Source: an uncultured bacterium
Lineage (GTDB): Bacteria > Hydrothermota > UBA3073 > NMUJ01 > CBEVQO01
Assembly (NCBI GenBank): GCA_965552055.1
Contig: CBEVQO010000005.1
Span: 116,122 to 180,121 of the forward strand
Direction of reading: 5' to 3'
Length of the DNA: 64,000 nucleotides
Positions 414-63,146 of this stretch are shown piece by piece. The position numbers and the translations under genes are program-made. Below the pieces are notes generated by a model. The model saw only the letters and a list, made by a program, of their open reading frames with translations, was not told the DNA's origin and made no database searches. How positions within the stretch are numbered: position 1 is the stretch's first letter; every line of letters begins with the position of its first letter.

Positions 414-440
414 ATTATAATCAAAAAATGAATCTGTCAA
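414..440 (-). promoter_or_regulatory. Promoter TTGACA-N15-TATAAT, 5 nt upstream of ATG 408
   Basis: tgtcaa at 435-440 and attata at 414-419 on the + strand. Confidence 0.75.
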
Positions 441-451
441 GTTTTCAAAAA

Positions 452-1090
452 TTAAAATTTTATAACAGCAAGATGTCTGCCTGTTTTGCCTTTATCTCTT
501 CTGTAAGAGAAAAATTTATCCGGATGCTCATAGGTGCACAATCCGGGATTGAAAACTTTAACGCCTATCCTTTTAAGCTTTTCCTCAATTCCTCCCCACA
601 AATCAATGTCATAACAGTTAGGACAGATAGAGGGGCTTATCAGAGCAAATTCAGGTGCTGGCACTAATTTCAGCATAGATTCAATGATGCCAGATTCAAA
701 GCCACGCCTACCAATATGTAAAATGCCGATATACTCGGGATGATAAAGAAAAAGAGCAACACAATCTGCAACATACACTCCAAGTGTTAAATCTTTTTTG
801 AAAGTTATTAAACCATCGCCTTCTAAATCTTCTTTCTTATCCACAATTCTCACAATGTTGCTATGAATCTGCTTTAAAGTGATGAGATTTTCTTCACTTA
901 TGCCTATTTCTTTAAAATATCTTTTTCTATTTTCTTTCACATTTTCGGGTAAATCCCCAACATTAAAAGATAAATTTAAACTTTCAAAATTTCCTTCGCT
1001 AACCCCTCCCATCCTTGTCGGAAAATACATTTTTACATTTTTGTAAGAGAAGTAAAAAAGTAATAATTTACCTTTTTGTAGCAATTGCAT
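452..1090 (-). CDS. pgeF: PgeF/YfiH polyphenol-oxidase (laccase-domain) family protein
   Basis: TRMGGVS..SLNL, QIHS, GDGLIT, VADC, H.G.RG, CT..HPDKFFSYRRD.GKTGR motifs. Confidence 0.9.
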   Translation of the reverse strand: MQLLQKGKLLLFYFSYKNVKMYFPTRMGGVSEGNFESLNLSFNVGDLPENVKENRKRYFKEIGISEENLITLKQIHSNIVRIVDKKEDLEGDGLITFKKDLTLGVYVADCVALFLYHPEYIGILHIGRRGFESGIIESMLKLVPAPEFALISPSICPNCYDIDLWGGIEEKLKRIGVKVFNPGLCTYEHPDKFFSYRRDKGKTGRHLAVIKF

Positions 1091-1781
1091 CTTTTATTCT
1101 TTTCTGTGCGAATTCGTAATATTGAGGCGAAATTTCGAATCCTATGAAATTTCTGCCAGTTTCAAGTGCAGCTACTGCTGTTGTGCCAGAACCTATAAAG
1201 GGGTCGAGCACTATATCCCCCGGATTGCTCGAATACAAAATTAACTTTTTTACAAGCTCGAGAGGTAGTTTTGTTGCAGTTTTTATCTTGCCAGTCCAGT
1301 ACTCTCTTTTCATAAAAATAACATCTTCGGGATAATGGTCAATCTTATTGAAAATATATTTTTTCGGATTCTTCACTGCAAAAATTATATGATAATGACT
1401 TGTTACAAATTTTCGCCTTGTATAAACACCAAATTGATATTTCCATATCAGATGATTTATAACCGTTAATCCTGCATCGTCCACTGCTATCAAAATATCT
1501 TTTAAATTAGTCCAGCCAGAAAAAATATAAATGCTACCTGTTTCTTTAAGAACTCTTTTGCATTCAAAAATCCATTTTCTTGAAAATTCGAGATATTTCT
1601 CTTTGGGTATTTCATTGTAGTCTTCGAGCACTTTTTCTGCTTTTCTGTGATAATTTGAGCGCTTTGCTTTGAAATCAATTGCAAAAGGCGGGTCTGTTAT
1701 TACAAGGTCAATAGAATTATCCGGCAATTCTTTAAGAAGAATAAGGGCATCACCGCAATATATTTTATTCAACTCAAACAT
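1068..1781 (-). CDS. Site-specific DNA methyltransferase (N4/N6, beta class)
   Basis: DPPF catalytic motif precedes VLDPFIGSGTT SAM-binding motif. Start is 1781 or 1784. Confidence 0.9.
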   Translation of the reverse strand: MFELNKIYCGDALILLKELPDNSIDLVITDPPFAIDFKAKRSNYHRKAEKVLEDYNEIPKEKYLEFSRKWIFECKRVLKETGSIYIFSGWTNLKDILIAVDDAGLTVINHLIWKYQFGVYTRRKFVTSHYHIIFAVKNPKKYIFNKIDHYPEDVIFMKREYWTGKIKTATKLPLELVKKLILYSSNPGDIVLDPFIGSGTTAVAALETGRNFIGFEISPQYYEFAQKRIKDAIATKR

Positions 1782-1814
1782 CATTTAAAATACTTAAATT
1801 ATAACAATGTCAAC

Positions 1815-1853
1815 AATTTTTAGCCTGCTCAACTCATATGTAATGCGTGCATT
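1815..1853 (-). repeat. Probable internally deleted remnant of the structured repeat element
   Basis: aatttttagcc (=9011-9021), caactcatatgtaatg (15/16 to 9304-9319) and gcatt (=9335-9339) occur in the same order as in the 9-kb copy. Confidence 0.5.
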
Positions 1854-2021
1854 CCGTTTGTAATAGAATTTTAAAATTTCGCTTGACATTTTCCGTTATC
1901 GATTATATAACTACGATGCAAACTTTGAGACATAACTTGCTTAATTGCATTTTAATGAAAAGAAGCACGGATATGAATAGGGAGGCGCAATTGCTTTAAA
2001 TGTAAATAAAGGAGGTGTAAA

Positions 2022-2807: not shown

Positions 2808-3011
2808 ATTGTCAGATAAATTTAAATTTACCAAATGATAAGGAAAGCAAAAGATGATGGAGCGGATTTTTATTTTTGTCGGCAGTTCGACTCGAAGAAA
2901 AATCAAAAAAAGATATGCGAGAGATATAGGATTAGAAATAAAATTATTCCTCTATGAAAAAGCCAAGATGGAAATTCACTTTATATCTGACCGCCATAGA
3001 ATGAAGAATGC

Positions 3012-5101: not shown

Positions 5102-5119
5102 CACTCTCTCCTTTTTACT

Positions 5120-5182
5120 AATTTAATCAAAATACAGCATTGTCAACTATTTTTATTGACAAACTGAAATTATCAGTAAAAA
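5120..5182. promoter_or_regulatory. Divergent promoters for pckA (TTGACA-N15-TAAATT, minus) and gdhA (TTGACA-N15-TAAAAA, plus)
   Basis: tgtcaa at 5141-5146 and ttgaca at 5156-5161. Both genes also have SD sequences. Confidence 0.55.
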
Positions 5183-5205
5183 TTAATAGTAAAAAGGAGG
5201 GAGAT

Positions 5206-9399: not shown

Positions 9400-9426
9400 T
9401 TGACAGAGGAAAATGTTAATTATAAT
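9400..9426 (+). promoter_or_regulatory. Promoter TTGACA-N15-TATAAT followed by SD (AAGGAGG)
   Basis: ttgaca gaggaaaatgttaat tataat. Confidence 0.75.
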
Positions 9427-9443: not shown

Positions 9444-11441
9444 GTGAGGCATGTTGCTTTATTATTCATCATTTTTACAGGGACGGCTTTCGCAAAGGTA
9501 TGGGTTGTTGATACCACAGGTGCAGAGGGCAAAAAGCTACAATCTGCAATTGACTCCGCATGGCAAGACCCGGGGATTGATACTGTGCTGGTAAAGGATG
9601 GAACCTATCATCTATTTATAAATGACACTATGGGCTTGATAATGCATGATTCTGTGGTGCTCATGAGTGAAAACGGAGCTGAAAAATGCACATTAACAGC
9701 TGTATCAGAGGATGGCACAGATACCGCATGGCATGTCATCTATTGCAGTGGATGGGATACTGCATCGCACGCAGCACTTATAAAGGGCTTCACCATAAAA
9801 GATGGCAATGCAACGGGTCCTTCTTCTCACACTTGGGGAGGCGGAATCTACATTTATTCTGCGTCACCCACAATAGATTCATGTATAATCACAAACAATT
9901 CTGCTAGTGGCGGTGGAGGAATTTTCATTTATTACTATTCTTCCCCCGCATTATTAGGCAATACAATTACAAACAATTATGCTGATGCTGGTAGCGGAAT
10001 TTTTATCTGGTGCCATTCTTCTCCCACAGTATCAGGCAATACAATTGCAAACAATCATGCTTATTATGGCGGCGGAATTTTCATATCTGATTATTCTTCC
10101 CCTACAGTGTCAGGTAATACAATTACAAATAATTATGTTAATAACTATGGCGGCGGGATTTTCATAACAGACTATTCTTCACCCTTATTATCATGCAACA
10201 CAATTATAAACAATCATGCTGATGATGGCGGTGGAATTTACATTTCCTTTTCTTCTTTTCCCATATTAACAGGAAATACAATCACAAACAATCGTGCTTT
10301 TGTTAACGGTGGAGGTGTTTTAATTGAACTTCGTTCCTCACCCACATTATTATACAATGCTATTACAGATAATCTTGCTTCATATGGTAGCGGAATTTTC
10401 ATTACAAATTATTCTTCCGTAAAGATAACAAAATGCGTAATCGGAATGAACAAAAGCAATTATGGTGGTGCAATATATGACACACTTCATTCAAAAATTA
10501 TAATCGACAGTTCGTTCATTGTGGATAATGTAGGTCTCGCTTATATTGCATCTGATGCAGATTCAGGAGTGACATTCAAACTAACATACAGCCATATATA
10601 TTATAACACTTTACAGCAAGATACCGAAATCAAAAATTTTTCGGGTGTAACTATAAATCTTGAAAATAATTTCTGGTGGGACACAACAGATGCAGAAATA
10701 TCTGCAAAAATATCGGGTGCAAATGACCATACCCCGTGGTTCAGCCACTTTATACCGGGTGTGCCGGGTGAACCCGTTAGCATTGACTCTTTTAAAAATT
10801 ACGATAAAGATTTCTCACAAGTTATTGACTCACTTGGCAAAGAAGATACACTTTACATAAGGATTTACGGACAGGATAGGGATGCACATATACATGAAAT
10901 CGCAGTGGTAATAATAAAATCGAGTGTTTATCCACAGGGAATAGCAGTTGGGCTCGTTGAAACAGATACAAATTCAGGAATATATGAAGGCAAAGCTTAT
11001 GTTCTGGAAAGCACAGGAAATGACGATATAAGGGATGACGATATAAATCAAATTATCCGTGTTAATCCAGATGGAGACGATATTTTCATCATCAGCAATA
11101 TTGAGCCACAGAAAAAATTTTATGTTAAATATAAAAAAGGTGCTGGGATAAAAGAAATTTCAGTAGAAAAATTCAAAGTAAGCAATATGCCAAATCCATT
11201 CAGCAAATTCACAAAGATTAAATATCAATTGCCAGAAGAAGAAAAAGTAAGGATTGAAATAATAGATGTAACAGGAAGATTGATAAAAGTATTGGTTAAT
11301 GAAAAGAAATCACCGGGATTTCATTCTGTAACATGGAAAGGTGAAGACGCCAGAGGCAAAACTGTTCCACCTGGAATCTACTTCTATCTCATAAAAGCAG
11401 GCAAAAACAAAGCAATAAAGAAAATGATAAAATTGAAATAA
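9444..11441 (+). CDS. Exported right-handed parallel beta-helix repeat protein with FlgD-Ig/T9SS-type C-terminal domain
   Basis: Signal peptide ending AFA, 24-aa GGGIFI..YSSP..SGNTITNN repeats, C-terminal PNPF...GRLIK...W.G.D..G...PGIYF. Confidence 0.85.
   Translation: MRHVALLFIIFTGTAFAKVWVVDTTGAEGKKLQSAIDSAWQDPGIDTVLVKDGTYHLFINDTMGLIMHDSVVLMSENGAEKCTLTAVSEDGTDTAWHVIYCSGWDTASHAALIKGFTIKDGNATGPSSHTWGGGIYIYSASPTIDSCIITNNSASGGGGIFIYYYSSPALLGNTITNNYADAGSGIFIWCHSSPTVSGNTIANNHAYYGGGIFISDYSSPTVSGNTITNNYVNNYGGGIFITDYSSPLLSCNTIINNHADDGGGIYISFSSFPILTGNTITNNRAFVNGGGVLIELRSSPTLLYNAITDNLASYGSGIFITNYSSVKITKCVIGMNKSNYGGAIYDTLHSKIIIDSSFIVDNVGLAYIASDADSGVTFKLTYSHIYYNTLQQDTEIKNFSGVTINLENNFWWDTTDAEISAKISGANDHTPWFSHFIPGVPGEPVSIDSFKNYDKDFSQVIDSLGKEDTLYIRIYGQDRDAHIHEIAVVIIKSSVYPQGIAVGLVETDTNSGIYEGKAYVLESTGNDDIRDDDINQIIRVNPDGDDIFIISNIEPQKKFYVKYKKGAGIKEISVEKFKVSNMPNPFSKFTKIKYQLPEEEKVRIEIIDVTGRLIKVLVNEKKSPGFHSVTWKGEDARGKTVPPGIYFYLIKAGKNKAIKKMIKLK
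9835..10410 (+). repeat. Coding tandem repeats of ~72 bp (beta-helix coils, about 8 units)
   Basis: Recurring gg(c/t)ggaattttcat...tattcttc.cc...ggcaatacaattacaaacaat. Confidence 0.8.
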
Positions 11442-13829: not shown

Positions 13830-13856
13830 TTGACAAAATCAAATAAGAATTAAAAT
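13830..13856 (+). promoter_or_regulatory. Promoter TTGACA-N15-TAAAAT, 5 nt upstream of ATG 13862
   Basis: ttgaca aaatcaaataagaat taaaat. Confidence 0.7.
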
Positions 13857-20166: not shown

Positions 20167-21044
20167 AAGCATTTGTTTTTCCGGGTCAGGGTGCGCAATT
20201 TGTAGGTATGGGAAAAGACCTTTATGAAAAATATGAAAAGGTAAAAGAAATATTTGACAAAGCAGTGGAAATACTGGGTTACGATATTAGAAAACTATGT
20301 TTTGAAGGTCCGGAAGATGAATTGACTAACACTCGCAATGCTCAACCAGCAATTTTTCTGCATTCATCTGCTATGCTGCAATTGATAAATGAAAAGCCCG
20401 ATATTACAGCGGGTCATAGTTTGGGTGAATATACAGCGCTTTATTGTGCGGGAGTATTTGATTTTGAGACAGCATTAAAAGTGGTGGCAAAAAGAGGTGA
20501 ATTGATGGCTAAAGCAGGAGAAAAGGCAAAAGGAAAAATGTCGGCAGTGATAGGTCTTTCAATAGAAAAAATCGAAAAAATACTGAGTGATTTATCAAAA
20601 AAGGGAGTGATTTTGATAGCGAATTATAACTCGCCGCAACAGGTGGTAATAAGTGGTGAAGAAAAGTTAATTGAAGAAGCAAATGAGATTTTAAAGAAAG
20701 AGGGAGCAAAAAGAGTAATTCCTTTAAAAGTGAGCGCAGCATTTCATAGCCCTTTGATGGATGAAGCAGGTAGGGAATTTGCACAATTTCTTGATAGGGT
20801 AGAATTTAGGGAGCCTGAAATTCCCGTTGTGCCAAATGCTACTGCAAAAGTTACAAAAGATGTAAAAGAAATAAAAGATGCGTTGAAAAAACAAATGACA
20901 TCAAAGGTATTATGGATACAGTCTGTGGAAGAGATGATAAAATGGGGTGTGAAAAAGTTCTGTGAAATAGGTCCTGGTAGAGTTTTAACGGGATTGATAA
21001 AAAAGATAGCGCCAGAGGTAGAAGTAGAAAAGATTGAGCTATGA
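20163..21044 (+). CDS. fabD: Malonyl-CoA:ACP transacylase
   Basis: FPGQGAQ, GHSLGEY, AFHS. Confidence 0.95.
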   Translation: MKAFVFPGQGAQFVGMGKDLYEKYEKVKEIFDKAVEILGYDIRKLCFEGPEDELTNTRNAQPAIFLHSSAMLQLINEKPDITAGHSLGEYTALYCAGVFDFETALKVVAKRGELMAKAGEKAKGKMSAVIGLSIEKIEKILSDLSKKGVILIANYNSPQQVVISGEEKLIEEANEILKKEGAKRVIPLKVSAAFHSPLMDEAGREFAQFLDRVEFREPEIPVVPNATAKVTKDVKEIKDALKKQMTSKVLWIQSVEEMIKWGVKKFCEIGPGRVLTGLIKKIAPEVEVEKIEL

Positions 21045-24000
21045 TTTTGTTTTTATTACTTCAATATAAATTAGTGTGGTGTGATAGTGTAAATTTCAGC
21101 AATTATGATAGAGCCTTTGCAATAAAATTTAGAGGAAGCGAAATACTCGTTGCGGGATACGGTGTTATAAATCTTGCATATCGTGGAGTTATTTTACATT
21201 ACGATAAATCCGGGAATTTGTTAAGAATAGATACAATTTACACGGGTGCAGCTACTTACATTTATGACATGGATGTAAAGCAGGATAAGATAATTCTTGC
21301 AGGACAGAGAGGTATAGGTTCATCCGGTGATTTACTCATTGTAAGAATGGATACTTTAGGTGATACTCTCTGGACAAAATGTGTTGATAAATTTGGAGAT
21401 GCAGAAAGAGGCAACGGAATATTTTATGCGAATAATGACACTTTTGTTGTAACAGGTTATGCAAAACTTAATGCCAATAATTATTTTTACACTTTAATGT
21501 TAATGGATACTGCTATCATATGGCAAAATAGCGATTATTTAGGACAGGGAGAAGATGTGATTTATACTAATGCTGGAGTTTTTGCATGTGGAGTAGGAGA
21601 GTTGTCTTCAAGTGAGGCATTTTTACTTTTAAAATATAATTTCACAGGTAATATTGTAAATATAGATACAATTGATTTCGCAGGAGATGAAGGAGCATAT
21701 TCTTTGATAAAAGAAAATCAAATTTATGTTACAGGATATGTTGTGCCTTCAGCAAATGCAGATTGCTATATTGTGAAATATAATTTTAATTGCGATACTA
21801 TATGGACAGGGAAATTTGCTAAAGGCGGTGGAGATTATGGGTATTCTGTATTTTGTAAAAATGGCTATGTATATGTAGCAGGTATGACACAGACAGCAAC
21901 AAGGGGAAATGATATTCTCATTTTGCAATACGATACTCTTGGTAATTTGATGTATTGTGATTCAATCGATTTAGGGACGGATGAAGAGGCGCACGGTATA
22001 ATAGTTGACGATTCGCTAAATGTTTACATTTGCGGATATAAAGGCGGGGTTAATACAGATATTTTTGTGCTGAAACTGATGCCGGTAGCTGACATTGAAT
22101 TGTCAGATACTTTTCGTGACTTTGGCAATGTAAAAGTTGGTGATACAGTAAGATGGCAATATCTTATCATTAAAAATACAGGTTTTAAGTGTTTAACAAT
22201 AGATAGTATAAAAGTGGATTTTCCGTATTTTGTGGATATTTCTCAAATTGCGATATCACCTTCTGATAGTGTACTACTTACAGTTTCTTTTTCACCAAAG
22301 GATTCGGGAGTTGTTGAGAAATTGTTGAAAATATATTCAAATGACCCAGATGAGCCTATAAGTACAGTAAGATTAAAAGGAGGAGGGTTAAAGCCGGGAA
22401 TCTCTCTTTCCGATACTATTTTGGATTTTGGACAAGTTTTAAAAGGCGATACATCAACGAAAATACTTGTCATAAAAAATGCAGGCAATGATACTCTTTT
22501 TGTAGATAGTATGAAAATAGAAGGAAATTATTTTTCTGCGAAGTTACAATCTTTTTATTTGTTACCTGCTCAAACTTACAATGAAACACTTTATTTTATT
22601 CCCCAAGATACAGGCGAATTTACAGGTACATTTTACATATACTCAAATGACCCCGATAAGCATGTATCTTATGTTGATTTAATGGGAAAAGGAATTAAAC
22701 CGATTTTAATAATATCCCAACGAAATATAGATTTTGGAAATGTTGACCTAAAAGACACAGTGATGTCGCAAATTTGTCTCAAAAATGCAGGGAACGCGAA
22801 TCTCATTATAGATAGTGTTAAAAATGAATTAGAGTGTTTCTGGTTTAGCCAGATTTCTGGATGCACTTTGACACCAAAAGATTCTACCCTTTTAAACATT
22901 TATTTTAGTCCGAAAGATTCCGGTGAATTTTCAGATACTTTAAAAATTTACTCTACCGATATTGATAGTCCTTTGAAATTTGTCTCAATTTTTGGAATGA
23001 GCATTTTGCCTTATATTTTGCTTTCGCAGAATTTTTATGATTTTGGTCAAATCTTTATAGGTGATAGTGCTGAATTTTCGTTTTACATAAAAAACATAGG
23101 TTCTGCAACTCTTATCATTGACAGTATTGCTGGAGAAGAAAATTCGTTTAAAGTATTGCTACAGGATAGTACGATAAGGAGAGAAGATAGTGCTTTATGT
23201 GTTATTAAATTTATTCCTCAACGAATGGGAGAGATTTCAGAATCAATCTGTTTTTATTCGAACGACCAGAAAAGAGTCAAAGTTTATTTTTATGCTACAG
23301 GTACGGGATTGTGGGCGGATATTGAAGTTGGGGATACCACACTGGATTTTGGTGTAATCGCAATAAATGATACCTTTGAGAAAGAGATAATGGTGTATAA
23401 TCAGGGAAATTACAGGATAAAGATAGATAGTGTGATTTTGAGAGATTCGGTATTCTGGCTCACTTCTTTTCCAGAGAGTATTGCGGGGTTTGACACTGTT
23501 TATCTCAAAGTATATTTTGCACCCAAAGATAGCATTGAATATACAGGGAAGTTATACATTTATTCGGATGATGAAGATGAAGGAATTTTAAGCGTAGCGC
23601 TGAAAGGAAAAGGAGGTTTACCTGAAATAAAGGTTTACCCTGATTTCTTAGATTTTGGAGAAGTAAATTTAAAAGATACAGCGGATACCCATATTGTGAT
23701 AAAGAATGAAGGAGATGCATTACTTGAAATAACAAAAATGACCTTTACGGATACCAGCTTCTGGACACTATCTTCTTTTCCTCTATATATTTCTGGCAGT
23801 GATAGTATTCTTTTGGGGATTTATTATAATCCCAAAGATACTTCTTCTGTGCTTTGCACACTTTATATTTACTCAAACGATAAAGAAAATGCAGTTCTCA
23901 CCCCTATATTGAAAGGTAAAGGCACGATATTAAAAATTGAAGAAATATCACCTGTTTATAATTTTGTAGAGATAAAACCGAATCCGGCAAAAAATAAAAT

Positions 24001-25278: not shown

Positions 25279-27815
25279 TTCTGAGCGCCATAATACTGTG
25301 GCATCAGTTAAATACACAAAATTATGTAGTTTTATATCCCGGGGATTATGAAAAAATAGCAATTCAGGTAGCAAAATATCTGGAGACATACAGAATGAAA
25401 GTGAAAGAAATAACAGGCGTTAAAAATGAGAAGTTAATCTGTGTGATTGAAGATATGGGGCTTTTTTCTAATGGTTTTGCTTTACCTCCTTTAAATACAA
25501 TTCATATTTTTACCGGTATTCCTTCTTCTGATCCTCATTTTGATGTAAGGTCGTGGTTTCGCATTGTTACCCTTCATGAGCAAACTCACTGTGCACATAT
25601 GAGAAATTATACGGGTCTTTCTTTGATTTTTAGATTGCTTTTCGGTGAAATTATGTCGGGGAATATGTGGGTGCCTAACTGGATTGTAGAAGGTGTGACA
25701 GTTTATACTGAATCGCAGATAGATAAATATGATGGTAGATTGAACACAGGATACTATAACGCATATTTACTCTGTTGTGCGGCACATAGAAAAATTCCGG
25801 GCTTAGCATCTATCGCAAATAATATAGCAAGATATCCGTATTATACTCAACATTATTTATTTGGCGGAGAATTTACACAATATCTCGCAATAAAAGGACA
25901 TTTGTCTTCGCTTTATAATGATTTGTCATTGTTTTTCTTTCCATGGATAAATATTGAGCTTTCCTTTTTTGTAAATTATTTAAATTTTCCGTTTCTGCTT
26001 GCCGAAAGATGGAGAAAAACATTATATCGAAAAGCAAAATGGGTAAAAAATGGTAAAACCTTACTAAAAACAAATAGCGAGATAAAATTTTTGACTATAT
26101 ATGGTGATTATCTTTACTATGTGAAAAAAAGAGTAAATGCAAGTGCACCTCTGGAAATCGTAGAGGAAAGCGGTATTTACAGGTTAAATCTGGAAAATAA
26201 TATAGAAGAAAAGTTGATAAATGCGTTTGTAGAGATTCCTTTTAAAATAAAAGATGATAAAATTTATTATTGCGTTGATAAAATGAAAAGAGGTTATAAA
26301 AATATAACTGCATGGGGATATGGAGTTTACAGAAAATTAATTTCATACGATTTACAATCGGGTGAAAAGAAAAAAATATATGAAGGAAATATAAGAAGTT
26401 ATGAAGTTTTAAAATACGATAAAATTTTAATTTTTGAAGAAGATAGGTTATTACATACTTCGATTAAGTTGTTGGATAATGGAAAGATTGAAACGATAGG
26501 AGAACTTGATGGAAAAATAATTCTTGAGAGTGTGCTTTTTGATAGTTTGATTTTTTGTGTTGTGCATGATGAAAAATGGGGTAAAGATTTGTATGCTTTA
26601 GATTTAAAAGATATGGAAATAAAAAGGATAACGAAGACGCCTTTTTCGGAAATGTGCATTTCCAGATATGGTGATCTATTAATCTTTGTAGCAAATAAGG
26701 ATAATTTTTATAAAATTTATGGATATGATGTTAAAAGGAAAAGATTTTACGAGTTGCTATCCGAAACATTTTCGGCTTATCCTGTTGTATATAAAGATAA
26801 AATTTTTTATGTTACATTACATCCCGAAGGTGAAGAAATTTGTGTATCTTTATACACGAAAAAAGATATAGATTATCCTGAATTTTCTGAAGAATATGGT
26901 ATTCATCCAGAAGAATTTGCGGTTAAAAAGAGTTCCTGTTATGCAAATGAATTGAGATTTCTTTTGCCCGTATTCTATGTCTTGTTTCCGCCTTATGTGT
27001 TTTGTATTATAAGTGCTGATGCTTTCATGCAAAAAGCGTTGGGAGTATTTTACACCAGATACGAAGAAAATACTTATATAAACAGCATTGGATATTGCAT
27101 AATTAAGCCATTTATTGTGTTTGGAAATATAGAAAGGTATAATTTTGATTCGCAAAAGGAATTTGAGAGCTACGGGGCAGGTGTAAATTTAATCGCCAGA
27201 TACAATATGGGATACGGAGAAAATTTGAGAATATATGGAATTAGAGTGCAATATGAGAAAGATACCCTTGATAAGGTAAAAATTGAAAAAGATGTTTTTG
27301 TGTTTTCAAATTTAAAAGGTTTTAACAATTACAAAAATTTAATGTTCGGAGTGTATCAGGTTGATGGTGATATTAAGGTGTATTTTGATTATTTACATGA
27401 GGAATATATAAGGTTTTTAAAGGCAGAGTATGGGGTGGGTATGGGATACTGGGGAAGTGGGTGGAGCTGTGAATATCTTTTGCATTTGATAATGCCCGTT
27501 TTAAAGCCAAGGTTGAATCTATATCCTCTTTTCTTTGATACTTTTTACATGGGAATATTTTTGGAAGGCAAGTTTAATCATAAGATGAGAAATACCTGGA
27601 ATACCGGTTTGAAATTTATCGCAGAAACTGGCACGAGTTATGGGTTTATAAAATTAACACCCTATTTAAAAATTTTTTGGGATGAAAATTTAAAATTTGA
27701 TTATGAGATAGGAGTTGAAAATGTTACGATGTCTTTGTTAAAAGGTAAAATAAATTTATCCAGATTAAAATATTACAGGTTGTTTTATCTTGACAAAATA
27801 GGAAAAGGATTATAA
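25275..27815 (+). CDS. Exported protein with gluzincin-like HExxH domain, TolB-like propeller and probable beta-barrel C-terminus
   Basis: HEQTH...PNWIVEG...ES....GR followed by propeller-like repeats. Confidence 0.6.
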   Translation: MILSAIILWHQLNTQNYVVLYPGDYEKIAIQVAKYLETYRMKVKEITGVKNEKLICVIEDMGLFSNGFALPPLNTIHIFTGIPSSDPHFDVRSWFRIVTLHEQTHCAHMRNYTGLSLIFRLLFGEIMSGNMWVPNWIVEGVTVYTESQIDKYDGRLNTGYYNAYLLCCAAHRKIPGLASIANNIARYPYYTQHYLFGGEFTQYLAIKGHLSSLYNDLSLFFFPWINIELSFFVNYLNFPFLLAERWRKTLYRKAKWVKNGKTLLKTNSEIKFLTIYGDYLYYVKKRVNASAPLEIVEESGIYRLNLENNIEEKLINAFVEIPFKIKDDKIYYCVDKMKRGYKNITAWGYGVYRKLISYDLQSGEKKKIYEGNIRSYEVLKYDKILIFEEDRLLHTSIKLLDNGKIETIGELDGKIILESVLFDSLIFCVVHDEKWGKDLYALDLKDMEIKRITKTPFSEMCISRYGDLLIFVANKDNFYKIYGYDVKRKRFYELLSETFSAYPVVYKDKIFYVTLHPEGEEICVSLYTKKDIDYPEFSEEYGIHPEEFAVKKSSCYANELRFLLPVFYVLFPPYVFCIISADAFMQKALGVFYTRYEENTYINSIGYCIIKPFIVFGNIERYNFDSQKEFESYGAGVNLIARYNMGYGENLRIYGIRVQYEKDTLDKVKIEKDVFVFSNLKGFNNYKNLMFGVYQVDGDIKVYFDYLHEEYIRFLKAEYGVGMGYWGSGWSCEYLLHLIMPVLKPRLNLYPLFFDTFYMGIFLEGKFNHKMRNTWNTGLKFIAETGTSYGFIKLTPYLKIFWDENLKFDYEIGVENVTMSLLKGKINLSRLKYYRLFYLDKIGKGL

Positions 27816-27816
27816 T
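27790..27816 (+). promoter_or_regulatory. Promoter TTGACA-N15-TATAAT, 7 nt upstream of the hdrA ATG, overlapping the upstream stop codon
   Basis: ttgaca aaataggaaaaggat tataat, no SD before ATG 27824. Confidence 0.8.
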
Positions 27817-35482: not shown

Positions 35483-35487
35483 CATAA

Positions 35488-35543
35488 ATTAAAATTGAAA
35501 TACTAAAATGTCAAGCTTGACATTTACAAAATTTATTTATAAT
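35488..35543. promoter_or_regulatory. Back-to-back divergent N15 promoters sharing the palindrome TGTCAAGCTTGACA
   Basis: Minus strand TTGACA-N15-TTTAAT and plus strand TTGACA-N15-TATAAT, 5 and 7 nt from their ATGs. Confidence 0.75.
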
Positions 35544-39681: not shown

Positions 39682-39743
39682 ATTTTAAACAAAATACAAA
39701 AGTGTCAAGAAAAATATTGACAATCTTAAGAAATTTGTATCAT
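39682..39743. promoter_or_regulatory. Divergent N15 promoters for rpiB (TTGACA-N15-TAAAAT) and wzm (TTGACA-N15-TATCAT)
   Basis: tgtcaa at 39703-39708 and ttgaca at 39717-39722, with starts 5 and 6 nt after the -10 boxes. Confidence 0.7.
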
Positions 39744-40572: not shown

Positions 40573-40599
40573 TTGACAATTTTAAAATATGAATAAAAT
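40573..40599 (+). promoter_or_regulatory. Promoter TTGACA-N15-TAAAAT, 5 nt upstream of the wzt ATG
   Basis: ttgaca attttaaaatatgaa taaaat. Confidence 0.7.
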
Positions 40600-44177: not shown

Positions 44178-44253
44178 CCTTTAAATATAATTTTGTTACA
44201 CTTTTGTAAAGAAATAATTGACAGATTTGAAAAATTTTTAAATAATAAGTAAA

Positions 44254-45687
44254 ATGAAAGTTTCTGTAATAATACCTTCTCTTAACCGTGCTAAATATAT
44301 TAGGGATACAATTGATAGTGTATTAAATCAAGATTATCCTTATCTTGAATGTATCGTGGTTGACGGTGGCTCAACCGACGGCACTATTGACATTTTAAAG
44401 AGCTATGGAGATAAGATAAAGTGGATTTCAGAGCCCGACAGAGGCCATGCAGACGCCATAAATAAAGGCTGGAAGATGGCGCAAGGCGAGATACTATCTT
44501 GGCTCAATGCCGACGATGTTTTGAAAATCCCCGACGCAATAAGCACCGTGGTAAATTTATTCAGAGAAAATCCCGATGTTGATGTAATATATGGTGATTG
44601 CGGTAAAATAGATTCTTCCGGTCAAAAAATAGGTGTTACTTATTGCTGGAAATGGAATTTAAATTATGCTATTGAGAATTGTGACCATTGTATCCCTCAG
44701 CCATCTGCTTTTATTCGCAGAAGAATTTTAGAAAAAGTAGGTTATCTTGACATAAATTTCTATCAGAAAAAAGACCATGAACTATGGCTCAGAATAGGAC
44801 TTTACGGGAAAATAAAGTACTTTCCTTTTTTACTTTCATATGAGAGAGCAATAAGAGGGATGAGTTTTGATGGGAGAACATCCGCTCCTGCCTGTGTACA
44901 AGTTACGAGGAAATTTTTTTCATTAAAGGGTGCGGAGAAGTATTGGAAGTTGAAAAAGAGGGCTTACAGCAATGCTTATTTAAGGGGTATTGATTATGCT
45001 TATGTTGGCGGTAAACATTGGGATATAATTTTAAAGTATTTTATAATGGCATTTGTATGTGATCCATGGAATCATAAAAATTTAATCGATAGAATTTACA
45101 GGTATTTGCCTTGTTTAAAGATTTATCGTCCGTTCTATCGCTTTTTTATGAAAAATATTTTGAAGAAAAAATTAAGAATTCCAGAGAGGGTAAGAGTTAT
45201 GGAATTGAAAGTCAATATTGACGATTTAAAAGGGGAAAAAATATTAATCTTGGGTAAAGATGTATTTAGTAGGAAATTGGGTAAAAAATCCACAGTTTTT
45301 AATTTTACTGGGGGTAATTTTTTTGAATCTAAATTTGATAAATACGATACGATAGTGTGCTATGAATTTCTGGAAAATCTCGGTATCAATGAAAAATATG
45401 GTTTTGCCGCCGAACCCTCTTACTCTGATTTGGAAGCGATGAAAATTCTTCGCAAGATGTTGAGAAAAGGCGGGAAAATGATTCTTGTTTTACCTGTGGG
45501 AGAAGATGCCAGTTTCGTTCCATTAATGAGAATATTCGGTAAATATAGACTTAGTATGTTATTTAAAGACTTTAAAATTTTAAAGGAAAAGTATTTTAAA
45601 GATGGTAAAGAAGTCTCAAAAGAGTTTGCTTTGACCTATGAAGCGTCCCCCACCGATTATATTGAAGGAGTTTTTTATTTAGCTTGA
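44254..45687 (+). CDS. Glycosyltransferase family 2 with C-terminal DUF268/methyltransferase-like domain
   Basis: DGGSTDGT, SEPDRG, WLNADD; C-terminal LENLG..KYG...DLEAM...PVGEDA....RIFG. Confidence 0.8.
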   Translation: MKVSVIIPSLNRAKYIRDTIDSVLNQDYPYLECIVVDGGSTDGTIDILKSYGDKIKWISEPDRGHADAINKGWKMAQGEILSWLNADDVLKIPDAISTVVNLFRENPDVDVIYGDCGKIDSSGQKIGVTYCWKWNLNYAIENCDHCIPQPSAFIRRRILEKVGYLDINFYQKKDHELWLRIGLYGKIKYFPFLLSYERAIRGMSFDGRTSAPACVQVTRKFFSLKGAEKYWKLKKRAYSNAYLRGIDYAYVGGKHWDIILKYFIMAFVCDPWNHKNLIDRIYRYLPCLKIYRPFYRFFMKNILKKKLRIPERVRVMELKVNIDDLKGEKILILGKDVFSRKLGKKSTVFNFTGGNFFESKFDKYDTIVCYEFLENLGINEKYGFAAEPSYSDLEAMKILRKMLRKGGKMILVLPVGEDASFVPLMRIFGKYRLSMLFKDFKILKEKYFKDGKEVSKEFALTYEASPTDYIEGVFYLA

Positions 45688-45710
45688 CTTTGTAATATTT
45701 CAGTTAAAAT
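45684..45710 (+). promoter_or_regulatory. Promoter TTGACT-N15-TAAAAT, 7 nt upstream of ATG 45718
   Basis: ttgact ttgtaatatttcagt taaaat. Confidence 0.65.
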
Positions 45711-55786: not shown

Positions 55787-55813
55787 AGTATATATCAAAA
55801 TTCATAAAGTCAA
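55787..55813 (-). promoter_or_regulatory. Promoter TTGACT-N15-TATACT, 6 nt upstream of ATG 55780
   Basis: agtcaa at 55808-55813 and agtata at 55787-55792 on the + strand. Confidence 0.65.
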
Positions 55814-57309: not shown

Positions 57310-57363
57310 AACCCACCTCCTTTGGTCCTCTCAGATTTTTTGCATTACACAACAATTTTAATA

Positions 57364-57725: not shown

Positions 57726-57752
57726 TTGACAATAGAAGATGTTATTTATAAT
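57726..57752 (+). promoter_or_regulatory. Promoter TTGACA-N15-TATAAT, 5 nt upstream of ATG 57758
   Basis: ttgaca atagaagatgttatt tataat. Confidence 0.75.
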
Positions 57753-57757
57753 GAATG

Positions 57758-58747
57758 ATGAAATTTTCTGTCGTTATAATCACAAAAAATAGGAGAGAGT
57801 TGTTGAAAAAATGTATTAACAGTGTAAAAAATGCAAAAAATAATTCTGATGTTGAGATAATTGTTGTTGAGGAGACTGATAAAGAGCTGGATATAAATGG
57901 AGTTAAGCATGTCAAATTGTCGGGTAAAAATCTGGGGTATGGGGTGCCTCGCAATGTTGGTGCGAAAGTAGCAAAAGGTGATTATGTGATATACATTGAT
58001 GATGACTGCATAATGGATAAAAATTATTTTGTAAGATTAAAGGAAGATTTAAGAAATTTAAATGCCGATGTTATAACAGGCGGAGTAATTGTAGAGGGTT
58101 ATAATTTTCTTTCGATTTGTCAAAATGCATTAGGTATTCCAAATGGTGCGCTTAAAAGAATTTTGAAAGCAAAAGGCAAAATTATAAAAACAAATTTGTT
58201 TTCAACCTGTAATTGTTGTATAAAAAAAGAAATATTGCTAAAAGAAAAATTCTGGGAAATAAAAAGAAGAGGAGGCGAAGATTATGATTTAGCTCTTCGT
58301 CTTGTTGATAAGGGCAAAGAAGTTTATTTCGACCCAGATCTTATTTGCTACCATAAATCTACAGAAAGTTTAAAAGGTTTTATGAAAAAATTTTATGAGA
58401 GGGGTAAAAACGAAATAAATTATTTTAAAGTAAGATTGAATTTCCGGTCATCTTTTTTTAAATTTTTGAGGACATCTCTTTTTATTCGTTTTTTGATTTT
58501 TGTTTTAATTTTCAATCTTTCTCATTTTTGGGGATTTTGTTTTCTTATCCTGTGGTTTTTAACTTTTTACTTTACCAATGTTTTGAGGGCTTTTCCTGTT
58601 TTTTCTTATTATCAAAGGATTTATTTAGTGTTTTTTTATCCATTTTTGAAATGTTTACTTGATTTTTCGTCAGAATCAGGCAGAATTAAAGGGCTTTTTG
58701 AGAGGGTTGAATATGTTGAAGGTATCGATTATAGTGCCTACTTATAA
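57758..58747 (+). CDS. Glycosyltransferase family 2 with C-terminal membrane segment
   Basis: SVVIIT.NR, RNVG, YIDDDC, GEDYDL. Confidence 0.88.
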   Translation: MKFSVVIITKNRRELLKKCINSVKNAKNNSDVEIIVVEETDKELDINGVKHVKLSGKNLGYGVPRNVGAKVAKGDYVIYIDDDCIMDKNYFVRLKEDLRNLNADVITGGVIVEGYNFLSICQNALGIPNGALKRILKAKGKIIKTNLFSTCNCCIKKEILLKEKFWEIKRRGGEDYDLALRLVDKGKEVYFDPDLICYHKSTESLKGFMKKFYERGKNEINYFKVRLNFRSSFFKFLRTSLFIRFLIFVLIFNLSHFWGFCFLILWFLTFYFTNVLRAFPVFSYYQRIYLVFFYPFLKCLLDFSSESGRIKGLFERVEYVEGIDYSAYL

Positions 58748-59609
58748 CAGGGAAGAACGGTTGTGTGATACATTAATGTCTTTGCAAAAAATTGATTATC
58801 AGGATTTTGAAGTTATTGTGGTAGATCAAACAAAGCATCATAAAAGAGAAACCGAAGACTTTTTAAAAAAGTTGAAGAACAAGATAAAATATTTTAAATT
58901 AGAAAAACCGCATTATACTAAAGCTTTGAATGCAGGAGCTGAGATGGCTACAGGAGATATTTTGTTATTTATCGATGACGATGTGGAAATTTTAACAAAA
59001 GATTTTATAAAATATCATGTGAGGAATTATGCCGATAAGTCCATTGGAGGAGTTTGTGGTTGTATTTTGCACCAAAATGAAGAAAAACCTTTGCCTTATA
59101 GAGGGGAGAAATTTACCTGGATTAAACCTTTCTTTAATCGAGATAAAAAGATGGAAATAGAAGTTGCTCCGTGTGCTAATTTTTCGGTTCGTAAAGAAGT
59201 TTTTGAATCAGCAGGCAAATTTGATGAAAAATTTGAGGCAGGAGGTTTTTTACACGAAATAGATTTTTGTTTCAGGTTAAAAAAATTAGGTTTTAAAATA
59301 ATTTATGAGCCAAAAGCTATATTAAGACATTTTTATGGTACAGAGGGAGGAGCACAAAATAAATTGAGGTTATCTGCAGGCATTGAGAGTTTTAAATATT
59401 TTGTTTATTTTTTTCAGAATGTTATCTATTTTTTATTGAAACATTTTAAAGGTTTTTCTTTTTTAAAGTATTTATGGCATTATTTGAGGGAATACTGGTT
59501 GAATCGTCCTTTGTTTATGCGAGGTGGTTTTTTCTTTTTATTTCACAGGGGATATTCTTTTATTCTTGGATTTTTACGAGCTGTTAAAAAATATCGGTTG
59601 ACATATTGA
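58713..59609 (+). CDS. Glycosyltransferase family 2
   Basis: SIIVPTYNR, FIDDDV, FDEKF, E.DFCFR. Confidence 0.9.
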   Translation: MLKVSIIVPTYNREERLCDTLMSLQKIDYQDFEVIVVDQTKHHKRETEDFLKKLKNKIKYFKLEKPHYTKALNAGAEMATGDILLFIDDDVEILTKDFIKYHVRNYADKSIGGVCGCILHQNEEKPLPYRGEKFTWIKPFFNRDKKMEIEVAPCANFSVRKEVFESAGKFDEKFEAGGFLHEIDFCFRLKKLGFKIIYEPKAILRHFYGTEGGAQNKLRLSAGIESFKYFVYFFQNVIYFLLKHFKGFSFLKYLWHYLREYWLNRPLFMRGGFFFLFHRGYSFILGFLRAVKKYRLTY

Positions 59610-59630
59610 ATATGTGTTTAAATTTAAAAG

Positions 59631-60576: not shown

Positions 60577-61871
60577 GGATAGCACTGATATATCCGAATC
60601 GTTATGCGAAATATAATGTGAAAGAGAGGGAGTTTTATAGAGTGCCCCCTTATAATCTTCTGGTTCTTGCTGGATTGACTCCCCGGGATTTTGAAATTGA
60701 GATAATAGATGAGCGTTATGAAAAAATAAATTTTGATAAGAAATATGACCTTGTGGGCATTACCGCACTTACCTGCAATGCACCCCGTGCTTATGAGATA
60801 GCTTCAGAATTTCGTCACAGGGGCGTGAAAGTAATTCTTGGTGGCATTCATCCCACTTTTTTACCTTATGAAGCCATAAAATATGCAGATAGTGTTGTGC
60901 TGGGTGAAGCGGAATCTATCTGGCGTGAAGTTTTGCAGGATGCACAGAGAGGTAAATTACGCAAGTTTTATAAGGGAAAACTCTGTGATTTGAAGGATAC
61001 TCCTTTCCCAAGATGGGACCTTCTCAAGAAATTAAAAAGGTATGTCTTTTTTGTTCAGGCAACAAGAGGTTGTCCCAATAACTGCAAATTCTGTTCTGTG
61101 CCGAAATTTTCGGGAAGAAGATTAAGGGTTAAACCTATTGAAAAGATAGTTGAAGAGATTAAAAAATTTGGTAAAAAATTTGTTATCTTTGTAGATGACA
61201 ATATTTTTGCCAGAAAAGAATATGCTTTTAAACTTTTCAAAGCTTTAAAATCATTGAGAATAAAGTGGGGAGGCGAAGCATCTATCAATACGCTGTGTAA
61301 TTTTGATTTAATAAAGGAGGCAGCAAAAAGTGGCTGTAAGGCGCTTTTTGTTGGTCTTGAAACGATAAAGCAAAAATCCCTTGAATTTTTAAATAAAACT
61401 TTCAATGCTTTGATAGATTTTAAAAAGTTAGTTGAAGTTTTGCATAGAAATGGGATAGCGGTTATTGCATCGATGATGTTTGGTCTTGACCATGATGATG
61501 CTGGGATTTTTCGTCGCACTGTTAATTTTCTTGATGAAGCAAAAGTTGATGCTGCGATATTTTCAATATTAACGCCACTGCCTGGCACCGATTTATTTGA
61601 GCAGTTTCAGAAGGAAGGTAGAATTTTGCACTATGACTGGTCGAAATATGATGCACTTCACTGTGTTTTTAAACCGAAAAGAATGACAAAAGAGCAGCTT
61701 GAAAATGGCTTAAAGTTTGTGTATAGGGAATTTTATTCGCCGTTGCGTGTGCTGAAAAGGATACCCCGTATGTTGAAAGTTTGTCCCTTTATGATACCTG
61801 TTAATATAGGTTATATGATAGGTGCGAGGCGGGGCATCTGTCCTGACTGGCGTAAAAAAATCCCCAGGTGA
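60573..61871 (+). CDS. B12-binding domain radical SAM protein
   Basis: GGIHPT, GEAE, TRGCPNNCKFC, FVDDN, GLET, TPLPGT. Confidence 0.9.
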   Translation: MRIALIYPNRYAKYNVKEREFYRVPPYNLLVLAGLTPRDFEIEIIDERYEKINFDKKYDLVGITALTCNAPRAYEIASEFRHRGVKVILGGIHPTFLPYEAIKYADSVVLGEAESIWREVLQDAQRGKLRKFYKGKLCDLKDTPFPRWDLLKKLKRYVFFVQATRGCPNNCKFCSVPKFSGRRLRVKPIEKIVEEIKKFGKKFVIFVDDNIFARKEYAFKLFKALKSLRIKWGGEASINTLCNFDLIKEAAKSGCKALFVGLETIKQKSLEFLNKTFNALIDFKKLVEVLHRNGIAVIASMMFGLDHDDAGIFRRTVNFLDEAKVDAAIFSILTPLPGTDLFEQFQKEGRILHYDWSKYDALHCVFKPKRMTKEQLENGLKFVYREFYSPLRVLKRIPRMLKVCPFMIPVNIGYMIGARRGICPDWRKKIPR

Positions 61872-63118
61872 AAGTATTAGTTGCTACAGGGATAGAGCCA
61901 GATTTATCAGGAGGTACTCAAAGGCGTTTGTATTATCTTATTGAGAAGATGAGGGAAAGGTTTGATGTTGATATTTTTTTATTGCGAGGGCGTAGCCCGA
62001 GCCAATTACAAATGGGTTGTGAGTCAACGCCCCGAGCAAGGCACTCTATTTTTGTAGCGGATGCAGGCTGGTTTATTCGACTTATTACGGGCAGGAGGTT
62101 AAAAAGCCACAGCGAAGTCAAGGCTGTGCCTTGCGAGGGGCGTGCACGAGGGCGGTGGGGACAGGGAGGTGGGGCAAATATTTTTTATAAGATATGCTTT
62201 CCTTTTAGAATAAACTGGAATTTATTGGAAAATTTTTGTAAAAGATTGCAAAAAAGGGATTTTGATGTTTTATTTTGTGTTAAGATTTTGCCTTATTTTT
62301 ACTGGTTGATGTGTGAGAAATATCCTTTGAATAGGGATTATAAAGTTGTTATCGATGAAGGTGCTCTCTTTTTTCTTTATTATTACAGATTGTATTTGTA
62401 TCATCCTGATTTTTATCAGAGGATTTTGAATTATTTAAGATTTTTGAGATTATATTTTTTTACCCGTAAATTTTTGAAGTATTGTGATTTTGTGACTTAT
62501 GTGAGTGAGGTTGAGCGTGAATGGTTGTGCCGGCTGGGCTATTCGGGTAAAGGTGTGTATTTACCGAATTATATTGATGTTGATGCTATTCCTTTTTTGC
62601 CAGTTTCTAATTGTAATATTCTGCTACTAGGACCTTTTGATTATTATCCCAATTATCATTCTTTGTGGTGGTTTTTTAATAGAGTTTTTCCTTTGTTGCG
62701 TGAGATGGGATATAGGGGTGAGATTTTTGTTGTTGGCAGGTGTGTGCCACGCTGGTGTTATTCTTTTTCTGATAGATTTAAGGGGATAAAGGTTTTGGGC
62801 TGGGTATCTGATTTATCTTCTGTTTATTCTCGCTGTGGTATTTTTGTTTTGCCTGTGTGGTGTGGAGGGGGACAAAGGACGAAGCTTCTGGAAGCGATGG
62901 CTTATGGCAAGGCGTGTATTGTGAGTGTTAAAGGCAAAGAAGGGGTATTTGCAAGGGATGGAGTTGAGTTTTTTGTTGCACACAATGAGAGGGAATTTGC
63001 AGAAAGAGTAATGTATTTGTGTAAGAGGAAGGAATTGATTAAGATAGTGGGTGAAAATGCCCGCAAGTTTGTTGATAAACATTTTTCTTTGAGAAATCTT
63101 GATTTGAAATTTTTATAA
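61868..63118 (+). CDS. Glycosyltransferase family 4 carrying an in-frame repeat-element insert
   Basis: VSEVE, PN, YYPN, GGGQRTKLLEAMAYG. Residues ~38-105 are encoded by the element. Confidence 0.85.
   Translation: MKVLVATGIEPDLSGGTQRRLYYLIEKMRERFDVDIFLLRGRSPSQLQMGCESTPRARHSIFVADAGWFIRLITGRRLKSHSEVKAVPCEGRARGRWGQGGGANIFYKICFPFRINWNLLENFCKRLQKRDFDVLFCVKILPYFYWLMCEKYPLNRDYKVVIDEGALFFLYYYRLYLYHPDFYQRILNYLRFLRLYFFTRKFLKYCDFVTYVSEVEREWLCRLGYSGKGVYLPNYIDVDAIPFLPVSNCNILLLGPFDYYPNYHSLWWFFNRVFPLLREMGYRGEIFVVGRCVPRWCYSFSDRFKGIKVLGWVSDLSSVYSRCGIFVLPVWCGGGQRTKLLEAMAYGKACIVSVKGKEGVFARDGVEFFVAHNEREFAERVMYLCKRKELIKIVGENARKFVDKHFSLRNLDLKFL
61980..62177 (+). mobile_element. GC-rich structured repeat element, short copy inserted in frame
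   Basis: Homologous to the reverse complement of 9011-9340. Flanked by ATATTTTTT at 61971 and 62178, 207 bp (69 codons) apart. Confidence 0.8.
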
Positions 63119-63119
63119 C

Positions 63120-63146
63120 TTGACAAATTTTATTTTCATTTATAAT
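63120..63146 (+). promoter_or_regulatory. Promoter TTGACA-N15-TATAAT, 5 nt upstream of ATG 63152
   Basis: ttgaca aattttattttcatt tataat. Confidence 0.75.

Follow-up and report, generated by a model that had tools for sequence, protein, structure and literature searches.

The stretch analysed here, called the window below, comprises 64,000 nucleotides (nt) of an uncultured bacterium (G000:C5:116122-180121; assembly of 2.23 Mb, 15 contigs, 35.6% GC) and carries promoters in which the two classical hexamers, TTGACA and TATAAT, are separated by 15 base pairs (bp; abbreviated N15, other spacers likewise) and not by the usual 17 bp. These N15 sites are probably genuine housekeeping promoters that are served by a holoenzyme of altered geometry, with a sigma factor of 272 amino acids (aa) as its most probable reader. 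Judged from the DNA, the promoter behaves as a sigma70-type housekeeping promoter that would feed leaderless mRNAs, and it departs from that type in a single feature, the spacer of 17 +/- 1 bp.

Perfect TTGACA-Nx-TATAAT matches in the complete genome numbered 7 for N14, 121 for N15, 27 for N16, 7 for N17 and 4 for N18, with 0 to 6 matches at each of the remaining spacings between 8 and 25. The genome-wide spacing histogram, which the original prediction had proposed as a check, peaks at 15 and not at 17 (121 perfect sites vs 7), and the distribution (121 N15, 27 N16, 7 N17) does not follow the 17 +/- 1 bp rule of sigma70-type promoters. The hexamers themselves are of that type: the -35 box is close to TTGACA and the -10 box close to TATAAT, with invariant A2 and T6 and the consensus TAwAAT. 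With one position of the -10 box left free (TTGACA-Nx-TAnAAT) the counts were 261 for N15, 49 for N16 and 21 for N17, and the reversed pattern, serving as a genome-wide control, gave one match in place of 121. Anchoring on TTGACA only (1818 sites, -10 region unconstrained) revealed enrichment of T, A, -, A, A and T at +21 to +26, which corresponds to the N15 register. The start of a long open reading frame (ORF; at least 80 codons) was located at most 60 nt downstream of 99 of the 121 perfect sites, as compared with 1441 of 5000 random positions. The seven perfect N17 sites barely exceed the 0 to 6 matches at irrelevant spacings, and the idea that this genome has a second promoter class with N17 was rejected for this reason.

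Exactly six perfect N15 sites occur in the window (414-440 on the minus strand; 9400, 27790, 35517, 57726 and 63120 on the plus strand), at the coordinates at which the original prediction had placed them; dinucleotide-shuffled versions of the window contained a mean of 0.01 such matches, and none of 100 shuffles reached six. The about eleven near-perfect sites that had also been named were recovered as well, all 11 having -35-like and -10-like hexamers 15 bp apart with one or two mismatches in total. When at most one mismatch in total was allowed, the sites of the window were distributed over the spacers as N13 1, N14 3, N15 13, N16 3, N17 2, N19 1 and N20 1. The listed sites had been described as lying just upstream of gene starts, which agrees with a start codon 5-7 nt past the -10 hexamer at 14 of 19 (the second ATG of RTG-ATG doublets being taken for this count). 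At sites 9400 and 5120-5146 the start codon follows 17-18 nt past the -10 hexamer, after a short Shine-Dalgarno leader; at 44218 it is found 9 nt past the N15 hexamer, and the ORFs downstream of 1883 and 59598 are shorter than 100 aa. Sites 1883 and 44218 had been called ambiguous. Both carry N15 hexamers, and 1883 fits N15 better (ATG at 6 nt, vs 4 nt for N17), whereas 44218 stays ambiguous between N15 with 9 nt and N17 (AATAAT) with 7 nt. The 19 sites are listed below (distances are those between the -10 hexamer and the start codon).

414..440, minus strand: perfect N15 site; GTG-ATG doublet with ATG 408 at 5 nt; DUF5618 gene.
1787..1813, minus strand: TTGACA-N15-TATTTT; ATG-ATG at 2 and 5 nt; DNA methylase gene 1071-1784.
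1883..1909, plus strand: TTGACA-N15-TATATA (or N17-TATAAC); ATG 6 nt after the N15 hexamer, ORF below 100 aa; ambiguous site.
5120..5146, minus strand: TTGACA-N15-TAAATT; short GGAG leader; phosphoenolpyruvate carboxykinase gene.
9400..9426, plus strand: perfect N15 site; 17-nt GGAGG leader, GTG 9444; gene for a secreted beta-helix protein with a type IX secretion system (T9SS) tail.
13830..13856, plus strand: TTGACA-N15-TAAAAT; ATG 13862 at 5 nt.
27790..27816, plus strand: perfect N15 site; ATG 27824 at 7 nt; operon of a 1450-aa HdrA-like flavoprotein.
35488..35514, minus strand: TTGACA-N15-TTTAAT; ATG-ATG at 2 and 5 nt; methyltransferase and LptE genes.
35517..35543, plus strand: perfect N15 site; ATG 35551 at 7 nt; phosphoglycerate mutase gene.
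39682..39708, minus strand: TTGACA-N15-TAAAAT; ATG 39676 at 5 nt; RpiB-SHMT-deaminase operon.
39717..39743, plus strand: TTGACA-N15-TATCAT; GTG 39750 at 6 nt; ABC-2 permease gene.
40573..40599, plus strand: TTGACA-N15-TAAAAT; ATG 40605 at 5 nt; ABC ATPase (Wzt-like) gene.
44184..44210, minus strand: TTTACA-N15-TATATT; ATG 44177 at 6 nt; FkbM methyltransferase gene.
44218..44244, plus strand: TTGACA-N15-TAAATA (or N17-AATAAT); ATG 44254; GT2 glycosyltransferase gene; ambiguous spacing.
45684..45710, plus strand: TTGACT-N15-TAAAAT; ATG 45718 at 7 nt.
55787..55813, minus strand: TTGACT-N15-TATACT; ATG 55780 at 6 nt; MlaE-MlaF-MlaD operon.
57726..57752, plus strand: perfect N15 site; ATG-ATG at 2 and 5 nt (57758); GT2 glycosyltransferase gene.
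59598..59624, plus strand: TTGACA-N15-TAAATT; ATG 59631 at 6 nt; ORF below 100 aa.
63120..63146, plus strand: perfect N15 site; GTG-ATG doublet with ATG 63152 at 5 nt; gene without Pfam match.

Two of the 13 window N15 sites with at most one mismatch are located inside long ORFs, and both are absent from the earlier list: 23490-23516 (plus strand) within 21041-24196 and 36212-36238 (minus strand) within 35551-36753. They could be internal promoters, antisense promoters or chance matches. Divergent N15 promoters stand back-to-back at 35488-35543, 39682-39743 and 44184-44244, with their -35 boxes 2-8 bp apart; in the closest pair (TGTCAA-gc-TTGACA at 35509-35522) the -35 boxes are separated by 2 bp, and the two presumably leaderless genes are 65 bp apart and share no spare DNA. 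The HdrA-like gene of the 27790 operon is followed by FlpD/MvhD, HycI, Fer4 and CCG genes. C-terminal T9SS sorting domains (Por_Secre_tail) were found on two secreted proteins, encoded at 9444-11438 and 21041-24196.

The fine structure of the promoter was read from 524 TTGAC-N16-TAnnnT sites of this genome and, for the N17 family f4, from 88 sites. Upstream of the -35 box an A-tract is followed by a T-tract, and C directly precedes the box at a frequency of 0.49. The 3' half of the spacer is T-rich and ends with G (0.45), A (0.53) and T (0.63), often as ...TGAT; the -10 box is TAwAAT, and A, T and G follow at +32 to +34. The conserved spacer G is positioned 3 nt before the hexamer (TGAT-TATAAT), compared with 2 nt (TGn) in f4. 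Upstream of the 16S rRNA gene two tandem N15 promoters were found:

L005 1376-1402: 16S promoter, TTGACA-N15-TATTAT.
L005 1443-1469: 16S promoter, TTGACA-N15-TAATAT (also readable as N18-TATAAT).

For the tRNA genes, a promoter was detectable within 150 nt in 12 of 46 cases; eight of these 12 are N15 promoters (five of them perfect), and in four of these eight the last base of the -10 box is 9-11 nt away from the mature 5' end. Genes served in the window include those of phosphoenolpyruvate carboxykinase and phosphoglycerate mutase, the RpiB-SHMT-deaminase operon and the Mla lipid-transport operon, as well as an HdrA/MvhD-type redox operon, ABC transporters, glycosyltransferases and methyltransferases. 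The N15 promoter is regarded as the housekeeping one because it is found in front of 16S rRNA and tRNA genes and of genes of central metabolism; the use at stable RNA and housekeeping genes that is typical of sigma70 promoters is thus found here (16S, 8/12 tRNA promoters, central metabolism).

The start codons provide a ruler for the position of the -10 box. For the 261 TTGACA-N15-TAnAAT sites, the distance from the hexamer to the first ATG that opens an ORF of 80 codons or more was determined; it is 5 nt in 49 cases, 6 nt in 28, 7 nt in 14 and 8 nt in 9, so that 100 of the 261 fall at 5-8 nt; in-frame RTG-ATG doublets starting at 2 nt account for 14 more. A second small ATG peak at 17 nt (16/261 sites) matches short Shine-Dalgarno leaders. 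Anchoring in the reverse direction, on TAnnnT-Nd-ATG in front of ORFs of 100 codons or more and with a single mismatch tolerated in the -35 box, yielded a sole peak at spacer 15 (112, 57, 27 and 25 sites for d values of 5, 6, 7 and 8, respectively, vs 0-18 for other spacers). The proposed start codons are supported because Pfam domains begin at residues 3-8 of the proteins concerned (RpiB at residue 3, the two GT2 proteins at 4 and 4, MlaE at 8), and in the HdrA-like protein the first Rossmann motif begins at residue 6. A -10 box about 5-8 nt from the start codon with no Shine-Dalgarno sequence, as is characteristic of leaderless promoters, is what was observed at the 100 sites named above, and so tight a coupling of promoter and start codon implies that most messages would be leaderless and would begin with the A of the start codon or a base adjacent to it. 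The RTG-ATG doublets (ATG or GTG 2 nt past the -10 box, then ATG at 5 nt) occur at 13 of the 121 perfect sites genome-wide and, in the window, at 408-413, 1779-1784, 35480-35485, 57755-57760 and 63149-63154. G is enriched immediately before the ATG (0.40).

The spacing was compared with that of relatives from the same phylum. Perfect sites (N15/N16/N17, per genome) were distributed as follows.

This genome (only sampled member of its family): 121/27/7.
Family f4 (8 genomes): 0-2/1-6/128-237.
Family f6: 2/25/19 and 3/73/25.
Family f5: 3/9/6, 2/16/4, 4/24/6 and 4/21/7.
Family f7: 1/2/6.
Family f3: 11/3/0, 5/5/0 and 5/5/3.
Sister family f2 (same order, small genomes): 1/2/2, 2/2/0 and 0/0/0.

Among 200 other genomes of the phylum (40 families) the highest perfect N15 count was 11. 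A relaxed motif (TTGACn-Nx-TAnnnT) was applied to sampled DNA, about 400 kb per sample. In f4 (404 kb) it gave 88 sites for N17, with secondary counts of 50 (N12), 38 (N19) and 35 (N22) and 8-26 at the remaining spacings; the secondary counts are read as by-products of the N17 sites. Genome G014 of f6 (400 kb) had 68 N16 and 50 N17 sites vs 16-30 elsewhere, and genome G001 of the sister family f2 (400 kb, 45% GC) had 61 N15 and 40 N16 sites vs 10-27 elsewhere, with a -10 box of the form TAwwTT. The modal spacer differs by family within one class, being 17 in f4, 16 in f5 and f6 and 15 here; less firmly, it is also 15 in the sister family f2. This lineage-specific spacing, with 17 or 16 in other families, matches the prediction of an evolved change in the transcription machinery. 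The f4 genomes (G005, G007, G009, G011, G013, G015, G017 and G019), with 128-237 perfect N17 sites per 1.3-3.0 Mb, are unusually rich in consensus promoters, which show a strong extended -10 element (TRTGn) and C before the -35 box; 50 of the 88 sampled N17 sites are without a long ATG-initiated ORF within 150 nt.

Five sigma70-family genes were found in this genome, namely a 575-aa RpoD, the 272-aa sigma, a 256-aa frame and two genes of ECF (extracytoplasmic function) size. The long RpoD and the counterpart of the 272-aa sigma in the sister family are located as follows.

L001:499-2226 (G000:C7), plus strand: long RpoD, 575 aa, intact gene.
L110:1378-2205, plus strand: sister-family sigma of about 275 aa, in an htrA-sigma-M23 cluster.

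A 501-aa open frame directly upstream of the long RpoD was taken as dnaG without annotation. The RpoD scores below the curated RpoD cut-off (288 and 284.8 bits vs 354), and no relative with more than 35% identity was found in a search of 5.8 billion proteins; scans of genome contigs gave only matches of 36-42% identity, and those of metagenomes one identical copy and two distant matches. The 272-aa sigma has regions 1.2-4.2 but no region 1.1, is most similar to Firmicute SigA and is encoded within an htrA-sigma-M23 peptidase cluster. It is no outlier (2/35 near-invariant positions changed). The R-E-R-x-R-Q helix of region 4.2, which reads the -35 box, is kept in both the long RpoD and the 272-aa sigma. 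In the sister family, no long RpoD was found in genomes G001, G002 and G003 (99, 87 and 66% complete), each of which has only the sigma of about 275 aa and one ECF-type match of about 175 aa; the htrA-sigma-M23 gene order is identical in this genome and the sister family. To judge from this gene content, the short sigma must be the housekeeping sigma of the sister family, where it coexists with N15/N16 promoters, and the family may be an example of bacteria that lack a canonical group 1 sigma. The 272-aa sigma is the likelier reader in this genome because the sister family has the same spacing with only the short sigma and one ECF-type gene. No clear promoter was found upstream of the putative dnaG-rpoD or of htrA-sigma in this genome, a result that is uninformative.

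Two alternative readings concern the DNA sites themselves. According to one, N15 is an artefact of the register: TAATnn, two bases downstream, would be the true -10 box, and the spacer would have the usual 17 bp. This is very improbable. A minor rise of TTGAC-Nx-TAnnnT matches at the N17-equivalent spacing (168 vs a background of about 100) is in its favour and is explained by TATAATnT, whereas the two positions after TATAAT carry little information and the hexamer has the same internal profile of information (T, A, t, A, A, T) as in the N17 relatives. The artefact was rejected because the ATG peak at 5 nt would then be left with 3 nt, so that transcripts would begin inside ORFs, and because the would-be -7 T is not conserved; a -10 box two bases further downstream had been named in the original prediction as a counter-indication, and the geometry of the presumed leaderless start codons places the box at TATAAT itself. 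It is hardly credible that the sites were multiplied as a dispersed repeat or a mobile promoter cassette, or that AT-rich DNA produced them by chance. Although an identity of 80% or more is reached by 48 of 7260 spacer pairs, the 121 perfect sites have a mean pairwise identity of 0.39 in their spacers and of 0.315 and 0.297 in the 40-nt flanks upstream and downstream, respectively, only 2 of 7260 upstream pairs reach an identity of 0.8, and the sites precede unrelated genes, rRNA and tRNA genes included; the single match to the reversed pattern and the shuffle mean of 0.01 (vs six sites in the window) speak against chance.

The other two alternatives concern the proteins and the template. The long RpoD might read the N15 sites, with its own changes setting the 15-bp optimum and the short sigma acting as an ordinary secondary sigma; the changes named are altered -12/extended -10 contacts (regions 2.4 and 3.0), the region 3.0 deletion and the linker insertions of region 3.2. 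Alone among 30 aligned RpoDs of the phylum, this protein lacks one residue in region 3.0, carries two single-residue insertions in region 3.2 and has a divergent region 2.4-3.0 motif. The 29 others share 59 invariant positions, of which 11 are substituted here (next highest 3/51); by alignment to solved sigma factors, the changed residues include the probable equivalents of T440, R441 and E458 in E. coli numbering. A spacer G at 3 nt, compared with 2 nt in TGn, fits a changed region 3.0 contact, the gene is intact, and short-sigma orthologues coexist with N17 elsewhere in the phylum. We nevertheless consider the long RpoD an unlikely reader, given that the N15 peak is present in the sister family without any long RpoD (3/3 genomes) and that the RpoDs of the N16 families are without indels relative to the N17 family, so that a spacing shift needs no RpoD indels; moreover, single-residue linker indels are not known to set spacer length. 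Less probable still is an unchanged polymerase geometry in which the short spacer compensates the overwound DNA of hyperthermophiles with reverse gyrase and thereby preserves angular phasing. Full-length reverse gyrases above the family cut-off were indeed found in this genome and in genome G001 of the sister family, and not above the cut-off in G013 (N17), G014 (N16) and G004:

G000:C4:82901-86113: reverse gyrase of this genome.
G001:C59:3527-6988: reverse gyrase of the sister-family genome.

Against the topological explanation, the five genomes examined amount to one evolutionary event, the shortened discriminator is left unexplained, and by our own estimate 2 bp correspond to about 69 degrees and 7 Angstrom, far beyond a plausible change of twist over 15-17 bp. 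Thermotoga maritima carries reverse gyrase. The same species is, in the available part of a survey of 49 species, among those with predominantly 17-bp spacers (PMC12641261).

Within the core enzyme, RpoB was inspected for features that might accompany the altered spacing.

L142:1456-5061, minus strand: RpoB of this genome (G000).

An insertion of about 45 aa after the beta flap is present in f4 and other classes and absent from f1, f2, f3, f5, f6 and f7; it was rejected as the cause, since its absence does not track N15. The C-terminal tail of beta was likewise rejected: it is 8-10 aa longer in f1/f2 than in f3/f4, but N17 outgroups have equally long tails. This tail anchors sigma domain 4 and, according to the part of the study available, influences which spacer length is optimal for an ECF sigma of M. 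tuberculosis (10.1101/534826).

Several observations count against N15 promoters served by an altered holoenzyme with the 272-aa sigma as reader. There is no long-ORF start within 60 nt of 22 of the 121 perfect sites, and no long ATG-initiated ORF within 200 nt of 37 of the 261 sites of the wider set; the transcription start sites are predicted from start-codon geometry only. The N15 spacing of the sister family was obtained from 400 kb of one genome with the relaxed motif, its perfect sites (1-2 at each spacing) being too few for a judgement. Family f3 is ambiguous: its perfect sites favour N15 (11, 5 and 5 vs 0, 0 and 3 for N17), whereas the relaxed motif gave weak peaks at 16-17 in two 400-kb samples, and f3 was left unclassified. 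On the protein side, the tip helix of the beta flap is conserved, and indels of the flap region specific to the two N15 families were not found. The long RpoD is intact and adjoins a putative dnaG, so it may still be the reader. An orthologue of the short sigma is present in 40 of 40 relatives, yet N17 or N16 is used elsewhere in the phylum, and therefore the short sigma alone does not dictate 15 bp; its linker length is not monotonic with spacing, the f4 linker being 9 aa shorter in spite of N17.

The original prediction had attributed the spacing to an altered primary sigma factor or RNA polymerase and had suggested inspection of RpoD and the beta flap. The observed spacing was confirmed, and in the complete genome it is far more pronounced than the window by itself would indicate. 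The attribution is supported in part: a changed promoter geometry, specific to the lineage, stands, and the 'primary sigma' may not be RpoD. Indels were indeed present in RpoD regions 3.0 and 3.2, and a lineage-specific indel of the flap tip was not. The architecture consists of an A/T-rich tract, c-TTGACA, a T-rich spacer of 15 bp, TAwAAT, 5-7 bases and ATG, which would bring the -35 box about 3 bp nearer to the start than in the canonical promoter (2 bp from the spacer and about 1 bp from the discriminator). The holoenzyme of this order would then hold sigma domain 4 about 2 bp closer to sigma domain 2, as the DNA suggests; its reader would most probably be the 272-aa sigma of the conserved htrA-sigma-M23 peptidase cluster, and the long RpoD may be co-adapting or losing its housekeeping role. 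Broader, and offered here only tentatively as a possibility on the doubtful side, is a joint scenario in which the order rebuilt initiation, with the spacer going stepwise from 17 to 16 to 15 within one class, a shorter discriminator, mostly leaderless mRNAs and a short sigma without region 1.1 replacing an RpoD that evolves fast in this genome and is lost in the sister family.

A spacer of 17 +/- 1 bp is regarded as near-invariant, because on the core enzyme sigma domains 2 and 4 stand at a fixed distance from each other. In their available parts, the ProFinder preprint (10.64898/2026.09.23.753901) reports 17 bp as dominant or median spacer in every one of 49 species with mapped transcription start sites, PMC12641261 gives 17 bp as median or dominant in each of 49 such species, and one of the two surveys places 99.2% of promoters at 16-18 bp. 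Searches of the full-text literature, subscription-only papers being outside their scope, turned up neither a modal spacer of 15 bp nor any account of promoters in WOR-3. The finding breaks this textbook near-invariant and makes direct biochemical predictions: a 15-bp lineage with 16- and 17-bp relatives is a natural experiment on the distance between the two domains and, if the reading is true, the class is a natural series in which the determinants of spacer length in bacterial RNA polymerase could be mapped. Promoter predictors limited to 16-18 bp would miss nearly all promoters of this genome, and gene callers expecting ribosome-binding sites would misplace many start codons. Should the sister family really have lost the canonical RpoD, as it appears, this would be relevant to the question of which sigma a bacterium cannot do without.

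Among known systems, canonical sigma70/SigA promoters (N17 +/- 1, optional TGn) have the same hexamers and the same information profile as the N15 promoters, and they share the C before the -35 box, the A/T-rich upstream tract and the use at rRNA, tRNA and metabolic genes; the canonical form is fully present in the same-class relatives f4 (TRTGn). In contrast to it, the modal spacer here is 15 bp (N17 being about 17 times rarer among perfect sites), the spacer G is located 3 nt and not 2 nt before the hexamer, and the distance from the -10 box to the predicted start is about 1 nt shorter. Promoters of sigma28/FliA (TAAA-N15-GCCGATAA) have a short nominal spacer and serve a small regulon. The nominal 15 bp are common to both, whereas the boxes here are TTGACA and TATAAT, not TAAA and GCCGATAA, and hundreds of sites drive rRNA, tRNA and central-metabolism genes. 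Sigma-AB of Bacteroidota is a short primary sigma without region 1.1 that uses TTTG/TAnnTTTG promoters. The likeness, which is one of size and region content, is that in the same superphylum the housekeeping role may fall to a sigma of about 270-290 aa that has no region 1.1, with a sister family without long RpoD; the promoters here are classical TTGACA/TATAAT, not -33/-7 motifs. Leaderless promoters of Deinococcus-Thermus and Actinobacteria (PMC12340547) likewise have TAnnnT near the ATG, no Shine-Dalgarno sequence and use at many genes. For D. radiodurans the available part of that source gives a -10 motif about 6-7 bp upstream of the ORF (PMC12340547), whereas the peak here is at 5 bp, about 1 base shorter, and, unlike in the known leaderless promoters, there is also a strong consensus -35 box at a fixed 15 bp.

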